Shown one piece after another: positions 15,693 to 55,302 of a DNA stretch of 64,000 bases. Both the position numbers and the translations under genes were made by a program. Origin of the DNA: Candidatus Margulisiibacteriota bacterium (GTDB lineage: Bacteria; Margulisbacteria; WOR-1; O2-12-FULL-45-9; XYB2-FULL-48-7); the NCBI GenBank assembly GCA_041650855.1, contig JBAZKJ010000002.1, positions 69,076 through 133,075 on the forward strand. Direction: 5' to 3'. Position 1 is the first letter of the stretch, and each line of letters starts with the position of its first letter. A model generated the notes under the pieces. The model was not told where the DNA came from. It made no database searches and was given only the letters and a program-made list of their open reading frames with translations.

Positions 15693-15767
15693 TGCGCCCG
15701 GCAGGAGTCGAACCTGCTACCTATTGCTTCGAAGGCAATCGCTCTAATCCAGATGAGCTACGGGCGC
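15693..15767 (-). tRNA. tRNA-Arg (anticodon TCG)
   Basis: Reverse complement GCGCCCG..ATTGC-CT-TCG-AA-GCAAT..GGTTCGACTCC..CGGGCGC-A forms a cloverleaf; CCA not encoded. Confidence 0.93.
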
Positions 15768-20109: not shown

Positions 20110-20135
20110 TAAAATTACCGTAAGAGGTGAGGGAT

Positions 20136-20741
20136 ATGGTTAAGAAAGCGAAAAAAACCAAGAAGGTCGCCCGGAAGGCGAAGCCGAAAAAGAGCAAGAA
20201 GATCGCCAGGAAAGCCAGAAGTAAGGCAAAGGCGAAGATGCCGGTTAAGTCGAAGGAAAAACTCCTGGGCTTGATCGACCACTACTTCGATAAGATCTCC
20301 GTCGCGGCGATCAGGGTCAAAGCGCCGTTCAAGGTCGGCGACGTCATCCACATCATGGGGCACACCACCAATTTTTACCAGCGGGTCGATTCGCTGCAGA
20401 TCAACCGCCAGGAGATTGCGCGGGCCAAAAAAGGGGACGACGTCGGGCTGAAGATCAAAGATTTTGTCCGGGACACCGACAAGGTTTACCTCGGTTCCGA
20501 GAAAGACCTGGCCGCCCAGCCGCGGACCTCGGGGATCATGATCAGCAAGCCGACCGGACCGAAAAAGCCGATCTACCAGACCTCGATCTTCAAACAGGAA
20601 GAAAAAACGTTGTACAAACCGGCGCCGAAGCCGGTCGTCCAGCCGCAGCAGCCGATAACCGCGGCTCCGCCGCCCCCGCCGCCGCCTAAAAAACCGGATA
20701 AACCGGACCCGTATTCGAACACGCGGTTCTTTAATTTTTAG
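20136..20741 (+). CDS. Hypothetical protein: Lys/Ala-rich N-tail, EF-Tu domain II-like barrel, Pro-rich C-tail
   Basis: SD GAGGTGAGG before ATG 20136; core HYFDKISVAAI..KVGDVIHI.GHTTNFYQ.VDSLQI....AKKGDDVGLK. Confidence 0.75.
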   Translation: MVKKAKKTKKVARKAKPKKSKKIARKARSKAKAKMPVKSKEKLLGLIDHYFDKISVAAIRVKAPFKVGDVIHIMGHTTNFYQRVDSLQINRQEIARAKKGDDVGLKIKDFVRDTDKVYLGSEKDLAAQPRTSGIMISKPTGPKKPIYQTSIFKQEEKTLYKPAPKPVVQPQQPITAAPPPPPPPKKPDKPDPYSNTRFFNF

Positions 20742-20776: not shown

Positions 20777-20805
20777 TTGAAATCTGCCGGTTTTTCCGCT
20801 ATAAT
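20777..20805 (+). promoter_or_regulatory. Sigma70 promoter of proS-pur run
   Basis: TTGAAA-17 nt-TATAAT. Confidence 0.65.
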
Positions 20806-20838: not shown

Positions 20839-22533
20839 ATGAGAATGTCTCAGGTGGTGGCGCCGACGCTCCGGGAGGATCCGGCAGAGGCGGAGGTAGT
20901 TTCCCACAAATTAATGCTGCGCGGAGGATACATCCGCAAAGTAGCCGCTGGAGTCTACACATTTTTACCCCTCGGTTTCCGCGTCCTGAACAAGGTCGCC
21001 AACATTATCCGCGAAGAGCTGAACCGGGCCGGGGCCCAGGAAGTGCTGATGCCGACCCTCTTGCCGGCCGAGCTCTGGCAGGAGACCGGGCGCTGGAACA
21101 TCTACGGCAAGGAACTTTTCCGCATCAAGGACCGCCATGACCGTGAGTTTTGCCTGGGTCCGACCCACGAAGAGTGCATTACCGACCTGGTCAGAAACAT
21201 CGTTAAATCGTACAAGCAATTGCCGGTCAACCTATACCAGATCCAGACCAAATTCCGGGATGAAATTCGCCCCCGCTTCGGGTTAATGAGAGGCCGCGAA
21301 TTCGTCATGAAAGACGCCTATTCGTTCCACACCAGCCAGGAATCGCTCGACCAAGAGTACCGGAACATGTACGACGCCTACTGCCGGATCTTCGACCGGC
21401 TCGGCCTTAAATACCGGGTCGTGGAGGCCGATTCCGGCCTGATCGGCGGCGGGTACTCCCAAGAGTTCATGGTCCTGGCCGAGACCGGCGAAGAGGAGAT
21501 CTTCCATTGCTCGCATTGCGACTATTCCGCGAGCCGCGACTCGGCCGGCGTCGGGGAGTATAAAGCCCCAGGTACCAGGGGCCAAGTACCCGGGACCCAA
21601 GAGGTCGCGACGCCTAACGCCAGGACCGTGGAAGAAGTCAGCGCCTTTCTCAAGATCAAGCCGGCCCAGCTGATCAAGACGCTGATCTACGAGACGGAAA
21701 AAGGGCCGCTGGCGGCGCTGGTCCGCGGCGACCACGCCATTAATGAGGCCAAACTGAAGAAAGTCGCCGGGGTGGACGAGCTCCGCCTGGCGAACGCCGA
21801 AACGATCAAGAAAGTGACCGGCGCGCCGGTCGGTTTTGCCGGCCCGGTCGGTTTAAAAGGGGTCAGGATCGTGGCCGATAACGCGGTCGAATTGATCGCG
21901 GACGGCGCTTCCGGCGCTAACAAGGCCGACTACCACGTTGTGAACATTGTCTACGGCCGGGATTACAAGGCGGAAACGACCGGCGACCTCCGTTACGCGG
22001 TGCACGCCGATAAATGCCCGCGCTGCGCGGAGGGGAAGTTCGAGGTTTCCCGCGGGATCGAAGTCGGCCACATCTTCAAGCTGGGGACTAAATATTCCGA
22101 CAAGATGCGCTGCGTTTATCTGGACGAGAACAACCAGGAAAAAGTGATGATCATGGGGTGCTACGGGATCGGCGTCAGCCGGACGGTGGCCGCCGCGATC
22201 GAGCAGAACCACGACAAGGACGGGATCATCTGGCCAATGCCGCTGGCCCCCTTCGAGGTCGCCGTGGTGCCGGCCAATACGGCGGAAAAAGAGCAGGTCG
22301 CGGTCGCGGAAAAGCTTTATCGCGACCTGGCGGCCGCCGGGTTCGCCGTCCTGCTCGACGACCGGGAAGACCGGCTCGGGGTCAAATTAAAAGATATTGA
22401 CCTGATCGGCATCCCGTACAAAGTGATCATCGGCAAGGCGCTCAAGGAAGGTAAAGTGGAGATCAAGTCGCGGCGGACCGGCGAGACGGTCCTGACCGAA
22501 CCGGCCGGCGTGGCGGCTAAGATAGGGAGATAA
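20839..22533 (+). CDS. proS: Prolyl-tRNA synthetase (bacterial type with INS editing domain)
   Basis: SHKLMLRGG, LGPTHEE, RDEIRPRFGLMRGREF.MKDAY, GIEVGHIFKLG, MGCYGIGVSR. Confidence 0.97.
   Translation: MRMSQVVAPTLREDPAEAEVVSHKLMLRGGYIRKVAAGVYTFLPLGFRVLNKVANIIREELNRAGAQEVLMPTLLPAELWQETGRWNIYGKELFRIKDRHDREFCLGPTHEECITDLVRNIVKSYKQLPVNLYQIQTKFRDEIRPRFGLMRGREFVMKDAYSFHTSQESLDQEYRNMYDAYCRIFDRLGLKYRVVEADSGLIGGGYSQEFMVLAETGEEEIFHCSHCDYSASRDSAGVGEYKAPGTRGQVPGTQEVATPNARTVEEVSAFLKIKPAQLIKTLIYETEKGPLAALVRGDHAINEAKLKKVAGVDELRLANAETIKKVTGAPVGFAGPVGLKGVRIVADNAVELIADGASGANKADYHVVNIVYGRDYKAETTGDLRYAVHADKCPRCAEGKFEVSRGIEVGHIFKLGTKYSDKMRCVYLDENNQEKVMIMGCYGIGVSRTVAAAIEQNHDKDGIIWPMPLAPFEVAVVPANTAEKEQVAVAEKLYRDLAAAGFAVLLDDREDRLGVKLKDIDLIGIPYKVIIGKALKEGKVEIKSRRTGETVLTEPAGVAAKIGR
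21567..21601. repeat. Period-7 tandem patch in proS
   Basis: CCCAGGT ACCAGGG GCCAAGT ACCCGGG ACCCAAG; encodes PGTRGQVPGTQ in the linker before the INS domain. Confidence 0.7.
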
Positions 22534-22537
22534 GCAA

Positions 22538-23842
22538 ATGTGCGGTATTTTCGCGGTCTCGGCGGCTAAAGAAAATATTTTAGACGACCTTTTTCTGGGG
22601 ACTTTTTACCTCCAGCACCGGGGGCAGCAGTATTGCGGCCTGTCCACCTACGCGGGCGACGGGATCAAGATCCGGACCCACCGCGGGCTGGTCCGGGCGA
22701 CTTTTACCGACGACCTTGGCGGGCTGGAGGGGCGGATGGGGATCGGCCACGCGGCGCTCAAGGACCGGCAGCCGATCAAGCTTGATTCCAAGATGGGGGA
22801 GTTCACCATCTGCTTCGAGGGGAACATCATTAATCTGGCCGAGCTGACCGACGAATTGAAGAAACAGGGCCATTCGTTCTACACCACTTCCGACATCGAA
22901 GTGATCGCCAAGCTGATCGCCCAGGGGGACGATTTCGTTTCCGGGATCGAATATATGGCGGGGAAGATCCGCGGCGCCTACGCCCTGCTTATCCTCTCCC
23001 GCGGCAAGATCTACGCCGCCCGCGACAAGCACGGGTTCCGGCCGATGATCATCGGCCAGAAAGAGGGGGCGGTGGCGGTCACTTCGGAATCGTGCTCGTT
23101 CGTCAACCTCGGCTACAATATCGTCCGCGACGTCAAACCGGGCGAGATCCTGGAAATAGAGGACGGCGAGTTCAAGACGGTCAAGGTCCTCTCTTCCGAC
23201 CTGATCCAGTACTGCACGTTCGAGTGGGTCTACACGGCCAACGTCGCCTCGACGATCGACGGAATGGCCGTCGATATCGCCCGGCGGAACCTGGGCGCTT
23301 GCCTGGCCCGGCGCTACCCGGTCAAGGCCGACATTGCCTGTGCCGTGCCCAATTCGGGGATTGGCCACGCGATCGGCTACTCCCAGGAATCGAAGATCCC
23401 GTTCGACAACGTTTTTATCAAGTACGATTACGCCAGCCGGAGCTACACCCAGCCGACCCAGGCGGAGCGCGACCGCGAGGCGAAGATCAAGCTGATCCCG
23501 GTCCCGGCCAAGATCGAAGGGCGAAAAGTGGTGATCTGCGACGATTCGATCGTCCGCGGCACGCAGATGAAGAACGACCTGGTCGTGAAACTGCGCAAGA
23601 ACAAGGTCAAGGAGATCCACGCCATGATCGCCTGCCCGCCGCTCAGGGCGCCGTGCCTTTACGGGGTCGCCACCCGTTCCAAAAAGGAACTGGTCGCCCA
23701 CGAAAAGACGGTGGAACAGCTGCGCGAATATATCGGGGTCGACGGCCTGGCCTATGCCACGCTGGAAGACCTGAGCCAGTCGATCGGCAAACCGCTGGAA
23801 CAGCTCTGCACTTCCTGCTGGACGGACGTTTATCGCGTATGA
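22538..23842 (+). CDS. purF: Divergent amidophosphoribosyltransferase paralog (PurF-like)
   Basis: N-terminal Cys (MCGIF), QHRGQ, DDSIVRGT PRPP loop and four Fe-S Cys present; GHVRY is replaced by GHAAL and HNG by FEG. Confidence 0.85.
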   Translation: MCGIFAVSAAKENILDDLFLGTFYLQHRGQQYCGLSTYAGDGIKIRTHRGLVRATFTDDLGGLEGRMGIGHAALKDRQPIKLDSKMGEFTICFEGNIINLAELTDELKKQGHSFYTTSDIEVIAKLIAQGDDFVSGIEYMAGKIRGAYALLILSRGKIYAARDKHGFRPMIIGQKEGAVAVTSESCSFVNLGYNIVRDVKPGEILEIEDGEFKTVKVLSSDLIQYCTFEWVYTANVASTIDGMAVDIARRNLGACLARRYPVKADIACAVPNSGIGHAIGYSQESKIPFDNVFIKYDYASRSYTQPTQAERDREAKIKLIPVPAKIEGRKVVICDDSIVRGTQMKNDLVVKLRKNKVKEIHAMIACPPLRAPCLYGVATRSKKELVAHEKTVEQLREYIGVDGLAYATLEDLSQSIGKPLEQLCTSCWTDVYRV

Positions 23843-25227
23843 AGGAATATTGCGGCGTCTTCGGGATCTATAATTTCGCGCCGGATTCGCCGGCCAAGTC
23901 GGTCTACTACGGGCTGTACGCCCTGCAGCACCGCGGCCAGGAATCGGCCGGGATCGCGGTCTCCGACGGCAAGGATATCGGCCACCACAAGGGGATGGGG
24001 CTGGTCAACCAGATCTTCAACGAAAAGAACCTCTCCGCGCTGAAAGGGACGCTGGCGATCGGCCACGTCCGCTATTCCACCACCGGTTCGTCGGTCATGG
24101 AGAACGCCCAGCCGATCGTGATCGATACCCGCTACGGCCCGATCGCGGTCGCCCACAACGGCAACCTGGTCAACGCGGACGACCTGCGGCAGCAGCTCAA
24201 GGACAAGGGGATCAGTTTCGTCGGCACGACCGATTCGGAAGTGATGGCGGCGCTGATCGCCACTTCCAAGAAACAGGAGCTCGAGGACGCCTTAGTCGAC
24301 GCGCTCAAGCAGTGCAAGGGGGCGTTCGCCCTGCTGGTGATGACCCGTGACAAGCTGATCGCCGTGCGCGATCCGAACGGGATCAGGCCGCTTTGTCTCG
24401 GCCGGCTGGACAAATCGTACCTGGTCGCTTCCGAGACCTGCGCCCTCGACATGCTCGGCGCCCAGCACGTCCGCGACGTGGCCAACGGCGAGCTGATCGT
24501 GGTCGATCAGGACGGCGTCCGGTCGCGCACCTGGGAAATGGCGGAGCGGGAAGCGCTCTGCGTTTTCGAGTACATCTATTTCGCCCGGCCCGACAGCGTA
24601 ATGCACGGGCGCAACATCTATGAAGCGCGCTACAACATGGGGAAATACCTGGCCAAAGAGCACCCGGTCGACGCCGACATGATCATGCCGGTGCCCGAGT
24701 CGGGCGTCCCGGCGGCGATCGGTTTTTCCGTCGAATCGAAGATCCCGTACGGCGAGGGGTTGATCAAGAACCGCTACATCGGCCGGACGTTCATCCAGCC
24801 GAGCCAGGAGATCAGGGACCTGGGGGTCAAGATCAAACTGAACCCGATCCGCGACGCGGTCCGCGGCAAGAAAGTCGTCGTGATCGACGACTCGATCGTG
24901 CGGGGGACCACTTCGCGCCAGATCGTCAAGCTGGTCCGGGAGGCGGGCGCCCGCGAGGTCCACATGCGGATCTCCTCGCCGCCGACGCTCAATTCCTGCT
25001 TTTACGGGATCGACACGCCGACCCGGGCGGAGCTGATCGCGGCGAACCTGTCGGTCGAAGGGATCCGGAAGTACCTGGAGGCGGACTCGCTCGGCTATCT
25101 TAGTTTAAAGAATTTGATCCGCTCGATCAGCCTGCCGAGCAAGAACCTGTGCCTGGCCTGTCTCAACAGCGAATACCCGGTCAAAGTGCCGGAGCGGATG
25201 GAATCATTAAAACTGTTCTTTAAGTAG
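23839..25227 (+). CDS. purF: Amidophosphoribosyltransferase (canonical)
   Basis: ATG 23839 (MKEYCGVF) overlaps upstream TGA; QHRGQESAG, GHVRYST, HNGNLVN, GRTFIQP, DDSIVRGTT, CFYGID, CLAC. Confidence 0.95.
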   Translation: MKEYCGVFGIYNFAPDSPAKSVYYGLYALQHRGQESAGIAVSDGKDIGHHKGMGLVNQIFNEKNLSALKGTLAIGHVRYSTTGSSVMENAQPIVIDTRYGPIAVAHNGNLVNADDLRQQLKDKGISFVGTTDSEVMAALIATSKKQELEDALVDALKQCKGAFALLVMTRDKLIAVRDPNGIRPLCLGRLDKSYLVASETCALDMLGAQHVRDVANGELIVVDQDGVRSRTWEMAEREALCVFEYIYFARPDSVMHGRNIYEARYNMGKYLAKEHPVDADMIMPVPESGVPAAIGFSVESKIPYGEGLIKNRYIGRTFIQPSQEIRDLGVKIKLNPIRDAVRGKKVVVIDDSIVRGTTSRQIVKLVREAGAREVHMRISSPPTLNSCFYGIDTPTRAELIAANLSVEGIRKYLEADSLGYLSLKNLIRSISLPSKNLCLACLNSEYPVKVPERMESLKLFFK

Positions 25228-25467: not shown

Positions 25468-26451
25468 ATGATCACATATAAACAAGCCGGCGTTGATATC
25501 GAGGCCGGATACGAGGTTGTCAAACGGATCAAGAAGGTCGCCAAGGGGATCGGCCTGTTCGGCGGGCTTTTTCCCTTCGGCAAATACTACCTGGTCGGCG
25601 CGACCGACGGGGTCGGGACCAAACTGAAGCTGGCGTTCATGCTCAACAAGCACCACACGGTCGGGATCGACCTGGTGGCGATGAACGTCGACGACGTGGT
25701 GGCGATGGGGGCCAAGCCGCTCTTTTTTCTCGATTACGTCGCTTTGCACAAGGTTGACCCGAACCTGGTGGAAAAACTGGTCAAGGGGATGGTGGAAGGC
25801 TGCAAGCAGGCGGACGTCGAGCTGGTCGGCGGCGAAACGGCCGAGCTCTCCGATCTGTACCAGAAAGGGGAGTACGACCTGGCCGGGTTCGCGGTCGGCA
25901 TCGTGGAAAAGAGCAAGGTCATCAACGGAGCGAAGATCAGGGAGGGGGACAAGATCATCGGCCTGGCCTCTTCCGGTCTGCACAGCAACGGTTACACGCT
26001 GGCCCGCAAGGTCATTTTTGAGCAGGCGCAGATCCAGCCCAAGGACAAGCTCGACGGCTTTGACAAGCCGATCGGCGAAGAGCTGCTAACACCTACCCGG
26101 ATCTACGCCGGGCTGCTCCTGGAAATGATCAAAAAGTTCAAGATCAAGGGGATCGCGCACATCACCGGCGGCGGCCTGCCGGAAAACCTGGGGCGGGTCA
26201 TTCCGCCCAAGCGCCAGGCGGTGATCGAGCTCAATTCGTGGCCGATCCCGAAGATCTTCCGGCTGATCCAGCGGCTGGGGGACGTTGACCACGAGGAGAT
26301 GTACAAGACGTTCAACATGGGGATCGGCATGGTCCTGGTGGTGGAGGCGAAACAGGCCGACCGGATCATGGCTTACCTTAAGAAGAAGAAAGAGACCGCT
26401 TACGTCATCGGCGAGATCGGCAAGGGGAACCGGGAAGTTATTATAATCTAA
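25468..26451 (+). CDS. purM: AIR synthase
   Basis: YKQAGVDI, TDGVGTKL, GIDLVAMNVDD, GGETAE, SSGLHSNG, HITGGG, TFNMGIG. Confidence 0.96.
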   Translation: MITYKQAGVDIEAGYEVVKRIKKVAKGIGLFGGLFPFGKYYLVGATDGVGTKLKLAFMLNKHHTVGIDLVAMNVDDVVAMGAKPLFFLDYVALHKVDPNLVEKLVKGMVEGCKQADVELVGGETAELSDLYQKGEYDLAGFAVGIVEKSKVINGAKIREGDKIIGLASSGLHSNGYTLARKVIFEQAQIQPKDKLDGFDKPIGEELLTPTRIYAGLLLEMIKKFKIKGIAHITGGGLPENLGRVIPPKRQAVIELNSWPIPKIFRLIQRLGDVDHEEMYKTFNMGIGMVLVVEAKQADRIMAYLKKKKETAYVIGEIGKGNREVIII

Positions 26452-27053
26452 TGCTCAAGCTGGGGGTTTTGATCTCGGGCAGAGGCTCGAACCTGCAGGC
26501 GATCATCGACGCTTGCGAGGCGGGGAAGATCCCGGCTAAAGTGGCGGTCGTCATCAGCAATAATCCCGACGCCGGCGGGCTGGAACGGGCGAAAAAACAC
26601 AACATCCCGGCGGTCGTGATCGACAACCGCGACTTCCAGGATAAGAATACCTACGAGTTGGAGATCGTTAAGACCTTGAAAGAGCGCGAAGTCGGCCTGG
26701 TTTGCCTGGCCGGCTACATGAGGATCGTCGGTGAGGTGTTGCTGGAACATTTCCCGGAGCGGATCATCAACATTCACCCGTCGCTTTTACCGTCGTTCCC
26801 CGGCTTGCACGCCCAGCGGCAGGCGCTGGACCACGGCGTGACGGTGACCGGCTGCACCGTCCATTTTGTCGATTCCGGGTGTGATACCGGGCCGATCATC
26901 GTCCAGTCGGCAGTCCCGGTTAAGGAGAACGACACCGAAGAGACGCTCTCGGCCAGGATACTGGAACAGGAGCACCACATTTATCCGTTGGCTATTGAGT
27001 TTGTCGCCAAAGATAAACTTAAAATTGATGGCAGAAAGGTAAAACTAAAATGA
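26451..27053 (+). CDS. purN: GAR transformylase
   Basis: ISGRGSNLQA, LAGYMRI, NIHPSLLP, GCTVHFV, DTGPII. Confidence 0.96.
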   Translation: MLKLGVLISGRGSNLQAIIDACEAGKIPAKVAVVISNNPDAGGLERAKKHNIPAVVIDNRDFQDKNTYELEIVKTLKEREVGLVCLAGYMRIVGEVLLEHFPERIINIHPSLLPSFPGLHAQRQALDHGVTVTGCTVHFVDSGCDTGPIIVQSAVPVKENDTEETLSARILEQEHHIYPLAIEFVAKDKLKIDGRKVKLK

Positions 27054-28618
27054 AAAAGAAAACCGCGGAGAAAAGATACGCCCTGGTCTCGGTCTATGAT
27101 AAAGCGGGCTTGGCGCCGTTCGCCAAGGAGCTGACCCGGCTCGGTTTCGACCTGGTCTCTTCGGGCGGCACGGCCAAGTTCCTCCACCAGCATAAGATCA
27201 AGGTGACGGAGGTCCAGAAGATCACCAAATACCCGCACATGTTCGACGGCCGGGTCAAGACCCTGCATCCGATGATCCACGGCGGGATCCTGTCGGACCG
27301 GACCAACAAAGCGCACCTGAAAGAGATCAAAAAGTACGGGATCAAGCCGTTCGACCTGGTCGTTTGCAATCTCTACCCCTTCGAAGCGGTCATTGCCAAA
27401 AAAGACTTTACCCACGCGGAGGCGATCGAGAACATCGATATCGGCGGGCCGGCGATGGTCCGCGCCGCGGCCAAGAACCACCAGAACGTGGCGATCGTCG
27501 TCGATCCGCATGATTACCAGGTTATCCTGGACGAATTGAAAGCGGCCGGCGGCATCTCTCTCGCGACCAGGGAGCGATTAGCCCTGAAAGCGTACGAGCA
27601 CACCGCCCAGTACGACACGCTGATCGTCCGCTACCTGAAAGCGCGGGCCGGCGGGGAAGAGCGGTTCCCGCAGGAGATGGAAGTGCTGCTGGAAAAGATC
27701 CAGACGCTCCGTTACGGCGAGAACCCGCACCAGCAGGCGGCGCTCTACCGGGAACGGGGGGCGAAAGGCGAGGGCCGGGTGACGGAAGCCAAACAATTGC
27801 ACGGCAAAGAGCTGTCGTTCAACAACATCGTCGACATGGACGCCGCCTGGAGCTGCGCCAATTATTTCGCCGATCCGACGGTCTGCATCGTTAAACATAA
27901 CAACCCGTGCGGCGTCGCCAAGGCGGCCACGTTGGTGGAAGCGTACCAGCGCGCCCTGGAGTGCGATCCGGTCTCGGCCTACGGCGGGATCGTCGCGGCC
28001 AACCGGCGGATCGACGAGCTGACCGCCCGGGAAGTCGCCGCCCTGTTCGTGGAAGTGATCATCGCCCCTTCTTATACGCCCAAAGCGCTGGAGATCCTGA
28101 AGGCGAAACAGAACATCCGGATCATGGAGATGGGGGAGAGGTCGATCAATAAGCCGTTCAAGGGGCTGGATTACAAGCGGATCAGCGGCGGCGTGCTGGT
28201 CCAGGACCCGGATATCGCCCAACTTGGGATCAACGAGATCAAGGTGGTGACCAAGCGGGAACCGACCATGGCGGAGATGGAAGACCTCTTTTTTGCCTGG
28301 GGGGTCGCCAAGTTCGTCAAATCGAACACGATCGTTTACGTCAAGGACGGCCGCACCGTCGGGATCGGCGCCGGCCAGATGAGCCGGATCGACTCGGCGG
28401 AGATCGGCGTCAAGAAGTCGCAAGGGAAGGTCAAGGGCGCGGTCCTGGCGTCCGACGCCTTCTTCCCGTTCCCCGACGTGGTCGAGTTAGCCGCGAAGGT
28501 CGGCGTGACGGCGATCATCCAGCCGGGCGGCAGCAAGCGCGACCAGGCGTCGATCGACAAGGCGAACGAAGCGGGGATCGCCATGGTTTTTACCGGCCGC
28601 CGGCACTTTAGGCACTAG
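27050..28618 (+). CDS. purH: Bifunctional AICAR transformylase/IMP cyclohydrolase
   Basis: SVYDK, GRVKTLHP, ENIDIGGP, LRYGENPHQ, KHNNPCG, GAGQMSR, SDAFFPF, FTGRRHFRH. Confidence 0.97.
   Translation: MKKKTAEKRYALVSVYDKAGLAPFAKELTRLGFDLVSSGGTAKFLHQHKIKVTEVQKITKYPHMFDGRVKTLHPMIHGGILSDRTNKAHLKEIKKYGIKPFDLVVCNLYPFEAVIAKKDFTHAEAIENIDIGGPAMVRAAAKNHQNVAIVVDPHDYQVILDELKAAGGISLATRERLALKAYEHTAQYDTLIVRYLKARAGGEERFPQEMEVLLEKIQTLRYGENPHQQAALYRERGAKGEGRVTEAKQLHGKELSFNNIVDMDAAWSCANYFADPTVCIVKHNNPCGVAKAATLVEAYQRALECDPVSAYGGIVAANRRIDELTAREVAALFVEVIIAPSYTPKALEILKAKQNIRIMEMGERSINKPFKGLDYKRISGGVLVQDPDIAQLGINEIKVVTKREPTMAEMEDLFFAWGVAKFVKSNTIVYVKDGRTVGIGAGQMSRIDSAEIGVKKSQGKVKGAVLASDAFFPFPDVVELAAKVGVTAIIQPGGSKRDQASIDKANEAGIAMVFTGRRHFRH
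27750..27784. repeat. Degenerate period-7 patch in purH
   Basis: GGGAACG GGGGGCG AAAGGCG AGGGCCG GGTGACG; every unit ends in CG. Confidence 0.5.
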
Positions 28619-54943: not shown

Positions 54944-55016
54944 GCGGGAGTAGCTCAGTTGGTAGAGCTTCTGCTTCCCAAGCAGAAGGTCGCGGGTTCG
55001 AACCCCGTCTCCCGCT
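54944..55016 (+). tRNA. tRNA-Gly (anticodon CCC)
   Basis: GCGGGAG/CTCCCGC acceptor stem, TCTGC-TT-CCC-AA-GCAGA anticodon arm, GGTTCGAAC T-loop; no CCA. Confidence 0.95.
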
Positions 55017-55027
55017 TTTTTTCTTGC

Positions 55028-55098
55028 GGCGGCATGGCCGAGTGGTTAGGCAGCGGTCTGCAAAACCGTTTACTCCAGTTCGAACCTGGATGCCGCCT
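55028..55098 (+). tRNA. tRNA-Cys (anticodon GCA)
   Basis: GGCGGCA/TGCCGCC acceptor stem, GCGGT-CT-GCA-AA-ACCGT anticodon arm, U73; no CCA. Confidence 0.95.
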
Positions 55099-55228
55099 TA
55101 TGTTACAATATACCGGATACCGGGAAGAATGCGCGCTTAGCTCAGCTGGTTAGAGTACTTGTCCCGATGGTCATTATAATAGATAATAATGGAATCATCG
55201 GGATCCCGATTCGATCAGCATCATCATT

Positions 55229-55302
55229 GCGCGCTTAGCTCAGCTGGTTAGAGTACTTGCTTGACAGGCAAGGGGTCACTGGTTCGATCCCAGTAGCGCG
55301 CA
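55229..55302 (+). tRNA. tRNA-Val (anticodon GAC), intact, nested in the insert of the outer copy
   Basis: GCGCGCT/AGCGCGC acceptor stem, CTTGC-TT-GAC-AG-GCAAG anticodon arm, GGTTCGATCC; no CCA. Confidence 0.93.

Follow-up and report, generated by a model that had tools for sequence, protein, structure and literature searches.

PurF catalyzes the committed step of purine synthesis and is a textbook example of ammonia channelling; its Asn101 and Gly102 form the oxyanion hole, and Asp127 binds the amino group of glutamine. In the window analyzed here, a stretch of 64,000 nucleotides of contig JBAZKJ010000002.1 (assembly GCA_041650855.1, positions 69,076 to 133,075 of the forward strand) from a Candidatus Margulisiibacteriota bacterium, two purF-like genes lie in tandem, and the first of them, copy 1, has lost residues of the glutamine site. 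What, then, is the role of a second PurF-like protein beside a canonical PurF? We find that copy 1 is a member of a separate PurF-like family, here called PurF', is under purifying selection, has intact phosphoribosyltransferase (PRTase) and [4Fe-4S] residues, coexists with PurF and is linked to purine genes. Judged by its sequence, its probable role is to form the first intermediate of purine synthesis with free ammonia, or else to act together with the normal enzyme.

In the PurF of E. coli, the glutamine loop comprises R73-E84, and the flexible loop K326-L350 closes over phosphoribosyl pyrophosphate (PRPP) (PMC7953260). R73 forms a salt bridge with the carboxylate of the substrate, and Tyr74 belongs to the channel wall and to the coupling of the two sites (PMC7953260). 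A second PurF-like gene adjoining purF and other purine genes, PurF', was described in Crenarchaeota (Brown et al., 2011, Biol Direct 6:63, PMC3261824). Its glutaminase site is impaired; it was proposed to be ammonia-dependent, was not assayed in 2011, and the duplication was listed as unexplained; a PurF paralogue with Ser for Cys was noted in Methanocorpusculum (PMC3261824). Our literature search returned Brown et al. (2011) as the sole relevant paper and no later test of PurF' function.

The tandem pair and the glutamine site of copy 1

The sequence-only reading of this locus had described a tandem purF pair that shares ATGA, and both its coordinates and its content proved exact:

22538..23842, + strand: purF' (copy 1), open reading frame (ORF) of a PurF-like paralogue of 434 aa
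23839..25227, + strand: canonical purF (copy 2), 462 aa; TIGR01134 567.6 bits, cut-off 350
23839..23842, + strand: ATGA stop/start overlap, end of copy 1 and start of copy 2

The two proteins align over their full length with 36% identity (E-value 3e-98). Copy 2 is the canonical enzyme it had been taken for, as its TIGR01134 score indicates, and all glutamine-site residues are present in it. Copy 1 covers positions 1-431 of the 432 of the same model with 330.4 bits, below the cut-off, and Pfam recognizes the glutaminase domain only. In their own genome (1.85 Mb, 95% complete), the PurF homologues are these two copies only, plus a GlmS-like match.

For copy 1, 119 orthologues with 64-95% identity were found, and the names of the nearest proteins come from Candidatus Margulisbacteria and Saganbacteria metagenome-assembled genomes (MAGs). 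The sites on which the further argument depends, including that of the N-terminal nucleophile (Ntn), are as follows:

22541..22543, + strand: codon of Cys1, the Ntn nucleophile position, in an MCG start
22745..22774, + strand: glutamine loop GHAALKDRQP, shortened by 8 residues and without Arg73 and Tyr74, with a conserved Arg77
22811..22825, + strand: CFEGN replacing AHNGN; Asn101 changed to Glu, Gly102 kept
23213..23215, + strand: Fe-S ligand Cys226, in 119/119 orthologues, aligned to the first Fe-S Cys of B. subtilis PurF
23417..23470, + strand: start of the PRTase flexible loop, IKYDYASRSYTQPTQAER; equivalents of Lys326 and Arg332 kept, Phe334 changed to Tyr and Ile335 to Thr
23534..23569, + strand: PRPP loop ICDDSIVRGTQM; family signature GTQ versus GTT, the last Thr changed to Gln
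23654..23656, + strand: Fe-S ligand Cys373, invariant in the diverse family alignment
23807..23818, + strand: Fe-S ligands Cys424 and Cys427 (CTSC), invariant in the diverse family alignment

Copy 1 had been said to retain Cys1, the PRPP loop and four Fe-S cysteines, and all of these were seen again; in an alignment to B. subtilis PurF, C226, C373, C424 and C427 fall on the ligand positions. QHRGQ, the Asp127 equivalent (TTSDIEV) and DDSIVRGT are also retained. The reported motif changes GHAALK, FEG and YDYASRSY are all present as well, and the alteration of the glutamine loop goes beyond substitution, with a deletion of eight residues: GHAALKDRQP aligns to GHVRYSTTGSSVMENAQP of copy 2. The flexible loop reads IKYDYASRSYT in copy 1 versus IKNRYIGRTFI in copy 2.

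These features are strongly conserved among the 119 orthologues. Cys1 is kept in 118, and in some of them short propeptides precede it. DDSIVRGTQ, Arg301 and the four cysteines are conserved at 99-100%; R301, T304 and Q308 of the flexible loop are invariant, and so is the Thr that stands for Ile335, with Tyr74 deleted. In the N-domain, Arg28, Gly29 and Gly95 are found in 119/119, Asn96 in 118/119, Arg77 in 116/119 and Asp119 in 104/119; the Asp127 equivalent is Asp in 104 of the 119. The position of Asn101 is occupied by E in 81, S in 24, D in 10 and T in 4.

An AlphaFold model of copy 1, built on a 63-sequence alignment, reached a predicted local distance difference test score (pLDDT) of 94.7 and a predicted template modelling score (pTM) of 0.91. 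Compared with Fe-S type PurF (B. subtilis 1AO0/1GPH; Arabidopsis 6LBP; 34-35% identity), it has the same two-domain fold, with template modelling scores (TM) of 0.91-0.93 against 1AO0 and 6LBP. Copy 1 shares with these enzymes Cys1, QHRGQ, the Asp127 equivalent, DDSIVRGT, the Lys and Arg of the flexible loop and the four [4Fe-4S] cysteines; it differs from them in a loop that is 8 residues shorter and has no Arg73/Tyr74, in Glu for Asn101, in Tyr/Thr for Phe334/Ile335, in GTQ, in its place in a separate clade and in its score below the equivalog cut-off. Measured by the features of the PurF equivalog, copy 1 has the Ntn-glutaminase plus type I PRTase architecture, Cys1, Asp127, the PRPP and flexible loops and the Fe-S ligands, and it lacks the 350-bit score, the Arg73/Tyr74 glutamine loop and the Asn101-Gly102 oxyanion hole, of which the Gly is kept.

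PurF' as an ancient paralogue

An exhaustive HMMER search was made against 1.84 billion cluster representatives (50%-identity clusters), and the best 150 were examined. About 46 of these 150 carry the signature of copy 1, and most of the carriers are also without Cys1. The signature consists of a glutamine loop cut short (Arg73 and Tyr74 gone), a replaced Asn101, RS[YF] for RTF, a PRPP loop with GTQ for GTT and a C-x2-C-W C-terminus; copy 1 has all of these. A tree of 153 sequences separated the short-loop proteins from canonical PurF by a single branch, with a support of 100% that was still 99% once all diagnostic motif columns had been removed. By these trees, copy 1 is assigned to an ancient, cross-domain PurF' clade that is defined by the deletion in the glutamine loop. 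A recent local duplication of purF is ruled out by the same trees (100%; 99% without the motif columns). The sequence-only reading had implied a tandem duplicate that later lost residues; this part of it has to be given up, as copy 1 falls in an old cross-domain paralogue clade and the pair is a linked cassette.

The family is widely distributed among anaerobic bacteria and archaea. When one genome per species was scanned for the motif [DE]DSIVRGTQ, at least 599 loci were confirmed, and the best 80 of them were examined. Among the best 80, the bacterial loci come from Bacteroidales (including the isolate Paramuribaculum intestinale DSM 100749, and Prevotella), Fibrobacter, Kiritimatiellia, Omnitrophota, Planctomycetota, Desulfobacterota, Syntrophales, Clostridia, Elusimicrobiota and Patescibacteria, and further loci from several archaeal groups. 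Five diverse PurF' members all scored below the purF cut-off and matched no other NCBIfam model; a search of the PDB returned canonical PurFs only and no PurF' structure. Across 24 diverse members, D336, S337, V339, R340 and R301 of the PRTase site are invariant, as are the Fe-S ligands C373, C424 and C427, and the fourth cysteine is nearly so.

The N-domain falls into two states. In a large group without the nucleophile, Cys1 is replaced by Ser or Gly, and Arg26, His71, Asn101 and Asp127 have been lost together; because all five residues are replaced, hydrolysis of glutamine in cis is impossible in most of the family. This group (loci L029-L095; Bacteroidales, Planctomycetes-Verrucomicrobia-Chlamydiae (PVC) bacteria, Omnitrophota, Clostridia and archaea) belongs to the same clade as copy 1 and shares its loop deletion, RS[YF], GTQ and Fe-S cysteines; it differs from copy 1, to which it is 36-40% identical, in Ser/Gly for Cys1 and in the loss of Arg26, His71 and Asp127, and its genes are linked to purL, purM and carB. 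The PurF' groups of Desulfobacterota and Margulisbacteria keep Cys1, Arg26, Tyr32, Cys33, His71, Arg77, Gly95, Asn96 and mostly Asp119. To judge from these residues, the Ntn site of Margulisbacteria PurF' is only partly dismantled and is strongly conserved.

Some members do not fit this division. An intermediate state is seen in the PurF' of locus L025, which has Ser at the Cys1 position and keeps Arg26, Tyr32, Cys33, Arg77 and Asp119; its genome (G132) holds two PurF' copies (254 and 246 bits) plus a canonical PurF. A rule that Arg77 always occurs with Cys1 is true in the 80 genome loci but not in every metagenomic representative, and no argument here depends on it. P0146, P0152 and P0156, one of them from a cluster named from Tissierellaceae, are long-loop PurF paralogues without Cys1 and/or Asn101. 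Because such long-loop, Cys-less paralogues lie outside the short-loop clade, the glutaminase site has degenerated more than once.

Distribution and selection within the class

A phylum sample of 121 genomes was used, 48 of them of the same class as the window. Orthologues of copy 1 (66-100% identity, more than 600 bits) were present in 22 genomes, all among these 48; the remaining matches in the sample are canonical PurF with at most 314 bits. Canonical PurF accompanies PurF' in 22/22 of the class genomes with a copy. Even within the window's own family, copy 1 is unevenly distributed; it was not found, for example, in a relative assembled as one contig and 98% complete.

A decaying purF duplicate would also have lost canonical glutamine-site residues and would score below the TIGR01134 cut-off, as copy 1 does. 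The ratio of nonsynonymous to synonymous substitution rates (dN/dS) was estimated by the method of Nei and Gojobori for unsaturated pairs among 14 genomes with both genes. It was 0.06-0.14 for copy 1 versus 0.055-0.14 for copy 2, so that the ratio near 1 by which the sequence-only reading would have recognized decay is not what copy 1 has; its ratio equals that of purF. The median dN was 0.139 for copy 1 versus 0.154 for purF, copy 1 being the less diverged in 68/91 genome pairs, and the N-domain dN was 0.17 in copy 1 versus 0.19 in the glutaminase domain of PurF. The N-domain of copy 1 is as constrained as that of purF. With its intact reading frame, its 119 orthologues, a confident structure model and a place inside an ancient clade, copy 1 is hardly conceivable as a decaying gene, and decay is ruled out by the dN/dS analysis.

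Exchange of the purF'-purF cassette

In the window, the pair is flanked by further genes of the pathway and by proS:

20839..22533, + strand: proS, ending 4 nt before purF'
25468..28618, + strand: purM 25468-26451, purN 26451-27053 and purH 27050-28618, ORFs named by reading their translations

The order proS-[purF']-purF-purM-purN-purH is conserved in relatives, and in those without copy 1 proS is followed directly by purF, purM, purN and purH at the same locus. PurF' lies beside purF in 21/22 class genomes, and in one the two are on separate contig ends. PurF' is upstream of purF in every case except genome G117, where the order is reversed to proS-purF-purF'-purM (locus L100, G117:C36, 2943-5639). 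The PurF of G117 groups with that of G023, a genome without PurF', apart from the main paired lineage, and a separate insertion or rearrangement is suggested for G117.

The tree of PurM, PurH and PurN follows taxonomy; it supports monophyly of the window's family at 100% and of the next family at 99%. On this flank tree, the presence of PurF' is scattered (10 changes; 382/500 shuffles as low), whereas on the PurF tree it is clustered (6 changes; 0/500 shuffles as low). Members of both families without PurF' group in a separate clade on the PurF tree (100%), where monophyly of the window's family is rejected by an approximately unbiased (AU) test (difference in log-likelihood 165, p = 3e-5). 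The PurF tree is thus at odds with the flanking genes: the segment of purF was swapped between lineages, together with purF' or alone, while the flanks stayed in place. The purF'-purF pair is exchanged as a linked cassette in this class.

PurF' occurs in 21/26 members of one PurF lineage, and physical linkage is a sufficient explanation of this association. Paired-type PurF is distinguished from the other PurFs of the class by six positions only (K51, Q58, E88, E287, E324 and V346). An interface signal was sought among these distinguishing residues, and none was interpretable; because only six positions separate the paired lineage, no co-adaptation is claimed. Five genomes hold a paired-type PurF without PurF', and PurF therefore has no need of PurF'.

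Genomic neighbors and coexistence across phyla

In the 80 loci, the recurrent neighbors of PurF' are purM (11), carB (10) and purL (6, including Bacteroidales), together with purD and purE; purM homologues form the most recurrent neighbor cluster. A cluster found in four loci is a candidate purN by our own reading, being unannotated. purF itself is among the neighbors in about 10 loci; it adjoins PurF' in Planctomycetota, one Omnitrophota, three Clostridia and one Asgard MAG. PurF' is linked to the purine pathway rather than to purF alone. The purH of the window matches L082 weakly (26%, 67 bits), and the purN homologue of L082 is unannotated.

PurF' is accompanied by a canonical PurF above the cut-off in ten genomes of other phyla and one Altiarchaeota MAG, in a small sample of genomes that includes several MAGs. 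In a Thermoplasmatota MAG, the second homologue is a 525-aa ORF with 312 bits, below the purF cut-off, and in Paramuribaculum it is a divergent 628-aa ORF, likewise below it. An Iainarchaeum MAG has PurD and PurM; its sole PurF homologue, a short-loop protein with 51% identity to copy 1, still has both Cys1 and Asn101. In the MAGs of Minisyncoccia and Nanoarchaeota (0.4-0.7 Mb), PurF' was the only homologue, and neither PurD nor PurM was found. These PurF'-only MAGs of Iainarchaeum, Minisyncoccia and Nanoarchaeota, small and of unassessed completeness, are suggestive evidence on the role of PurF'. The neighbors of the Minisyncoccia, Nanoarchaeota, Iainarchaeum and unclassified loci were uninformative.

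P. intestinale DSM 100749 (G125; C313:30565-31851, L069 7001-8404) has no protein above the TIGR01134 cut-off; its only PurF homologues are the divergent 628-aa ORF and a Cys-less PurF' that lies directly downstream of purL. carB and PurF' share a locus of about 15 kb in L018, L024, L026-L028, L031, L048, L082, L091 and L095, mainly from Desulfobacterota and Syntrophales. In the Clostridia loci L066, L071 and L082, the match of the GTQ scan falls on the canonical purF, and GTT is what the extracted ORFs have. Alongside it, in clusters of the purE-purF-purM-purN-purD type, lies a Cys-less PurF' of greater divergence (32-33% identical to copy 1), which makes these loci another independent tandem arrangement.

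What PurF' may do

As for function, the sequence-only reading had offered three options for copy 1, namely dependence on ammonia, another amide donor and a subunit of a PurF heteromer; all three are still live, and its picture of a local duplicate is not. The first is the one we favor, with a chance that we put only slightly short of even: PurF' would be a second PRPP aminotransferase that uses free ammonia. It would convert PRPP to phosphoribosylamine with nitrogen from ammonia entering through the open site, and, in anaerobic habitats rich in ammonia, would serve as a second isozyme beside glutamine-dependent PurF. The parts of the protein that bind glutamine and line the ammonia channel are dismantled, while the PRTase site and the [4Fe-4S] ligands are intact; in Margulisbacteria PurF', which keeps Cys1, Arg26, Gly102 and Asp127, some amide hydrolysis or ligand sensing may persist. 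That PurF' is catalytic and that ammonia is its substrate we infer from its residues. An ammonia-using isozyme is the simplest reading because the glutaminase site is gone in most PurF' while the PRTase half is strictly conserved; an isozyme of ammonia-rich anoxic habitats also fits the taxa that carry PurF' and the retained oxygen-sensitive cluster. We also count in its favor the Iainarchaeum MAG, which combines PurD and PurM with a short-loop protein as its only PurF homologue. There is precedent in E. coli: according to the account of Mei and Zalkin (1989) given in PMC3261824, PurF mutants with Ala or Ser for Cys1 lose glutamine-dependent activity, keep ammonia-dependent activity and so make phosphoribosylamine from ammonia without a glutaminase. 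Those are laboratory point mutants with loop and channel intact, whereas PurF' is a natural, ancient lineage from which the loop has been removed.

Several observations weigh against an ammonia-using isozyme. Cys1, Arg26, Gly27, Gly102 and Asn103 are invariant or nearly so in the Margulisbacteria clade, with Asp119 in 104/119 and the new Arg77 in 116/119, and such conservation of Ntn residues is hard to square with an N-domain that merely admits ammonia. PurF' coexists with a canonical PurF in 11 of the 12 genomes tested outside DPANN and Patescibacteria and in all 22 class genomes that carry it, which fits the role of a partner equally well, and the ATGA overlap and co-inheritance with one PurF lineage also fit a complex. 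That PurF' occurs in MAGs of Minisyncoccia and Nanoarchaeota where neither PurD nor PurM was found hints at a non-purine role, or reflects incompleteness of these genomes.

By analogy with HisZ, a pseudoenzyme subunit that works with HisG, copy 1 could instead be a partner of canonical PurF, in a PurF/PurF' hetero-oligomer that would tune activity or nucleotide feedback and in which PurF' would bind PRPP or nucleotides with little catalysis of its own. Adjacency to purF in 21/22 class genomes with the ATGA overlap here, the tracking of one PurF lineage (6 changes, 0/500, versus 10 changes, 382/500, on the flank tree), the equal rates of copy 1 and purF, coexistence in nearly all of the fuller genomes tested, and adjacency also in Planctomycetes, Omnitrophota, Clostridia and the Asgard MAG all speak for it. 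So does the replacement in copy 1 of the flexible-loop equivalent of Arg328, a position which we take to be part of the allosteric nucleotide site of B. subtilis PurF. Yet in most of the 80 loci purF is absent from the surrounding 7 kb, whereas purM, purL or carB are present there, and the PRTase catalytic residues are all invariant across a very old family, which is unusual for a non-catalytic subunit. Linkage alone accounts for the co-inheritance, the interface signal is unclear with only six positions marking paired-type PurF, and that PurF persists without PurF' in five genomes; we rate a partner role as unlikely. For the clades that retain Cys1 (Margulisbacteria and the Desulfobacterota group), we consider it somewhat less probable still, and doubtful, that the Ntn site has been remodelled and copy 1 is still an amidotransferase, an isozyme of different affinity or regulation that either binds glutamine in a new way, Arg77 taking the place of Arg73, or uses another amide donor. 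The conservation of the N-domain is what recommends this: Cys1 in 118/119, preceded in some by a short propeptide such as self-processing Ntn enzymes have; R28, G29 and G95 in all, N96 in 118, Arg77 in 116 and Asp119 in 104; Tyr32 and Cys33 as new conserved residues; and an N-domain dN of 0.17 versus 0.19 in purF. The same set is kept in the Cys1-bearing Desulfobacterota members and lost together in the Cys-less ones, and the sole PurF homologue of the Iainarchaeum MAG with PurD and PurM is of this type. The equivalents of Arg73, Tyr74 and Asn101 recur in other Ntn amidotransferases, yet these side chains, conserved in canonical PurF, are all missing in copy 1, and the Asn101 position varies (E/S/D/T) with no fixed substitute for the oxyanion-hole side chain. 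Nor are the Arg before QP and Cys1 correlated family-wide (P0124 and P0126 have the Arg without Cys, P0128 and P0129 Cys without the Arg), and the repeated loss of Cys1 in the family suggests that the glutaminase was already dispensable.

Much less probable is a different PRPP-dependent reaction, with another nucleophile and no phosphoribosylamine as product. It could explain the family-wide changes by the PRPP site (GTQ for GTT, RSY for RTF and KY for KN), the presence of PurF' in tiny Minisyncoccia and Nanoarchaeota MAGs where PurD and PurM were not found, and the many PurF' loci without nearby purine genes. However, the sole recurrent neighbors are purine-pathway genes and carB, no alternative pathway context was seen around the PurF' genes of DPANN archaea and Patescibacteria, and the MAGs in question are small (0.4-0.7 Mb) and lack a completeness figure. 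A bolder proposal, which we regard as doubtful, is that Cys1-retaining PurF' is a new Ntn amidotransferase or sensor half: its remodelled site (Cys1, Tyr32, Cys33, Arg77 and Asp119) would hydrolyze a non-glutamine amide or read nitrogen status, and it would form an obligate unit with a dedicated PurF lineage, the genes travelling as an exchangeable cassette.

Relation to crenarchaeal PurF' and significance

Copy 1 resembles the crenarchaeal PurF' in lying beside purF and other purine genes (proS-purF'-purF-purM-purN-purH) and in its impaired glutaminase site; it differs in keeping Cys1, for which the crenarchaeal proteins have Ala or Val, the comparison being made by published description and not by tree. 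PurF' is widespread, occurring in gut Bacteroidales, rumen Fibrobacter, sulfate reducers, PVC bacteria, Margulisbacteria and several archaeal groups, and it is annotated throughout as plain amidophosphoribosyltransferase, with no dedicated NCBIfam model. The family is large, ecologically prominent and mis-annotated. If PurF' is an isozyme that depends on ammonia, then the nitrogen and ATP cost of making purines is wrongly stated in metabolic models of anaerobes, and the gene duplication flagged as unexplained since 2011 would have its explanation; if it is a partner of PurF, it would add a new regulatory layer to the purine pathway. The Margulisbacteria PurF', in which the nucleophile is kept and the glutamine-binding residues are gone, is a natural intermediate for dissecting the elements of the Ntn site by function.

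Other features of the window

Near the operon, Rfam searches gave no riboswitch or other RNA element, and one candidate promoter was read upstream of proS:

20777..20805, + strand: candidate promoter TTGAAA-17-TATAAT, 11/12, 5' of proS, a consensus match only

By its position, it is a possible start of a proS-purF'-purF transcript. The sole Rfam matches in the window are tRNA genes, a cluster of three at 54944-55302 (+) and one more at 15693-15767 (-). Between a radical-SAM (YgiQ-like) gene and proS lies an ORF of 204 aa (20127-20741, +), whose product has a very Lys-rich N-terminus and a Pro-rich C-terminus.

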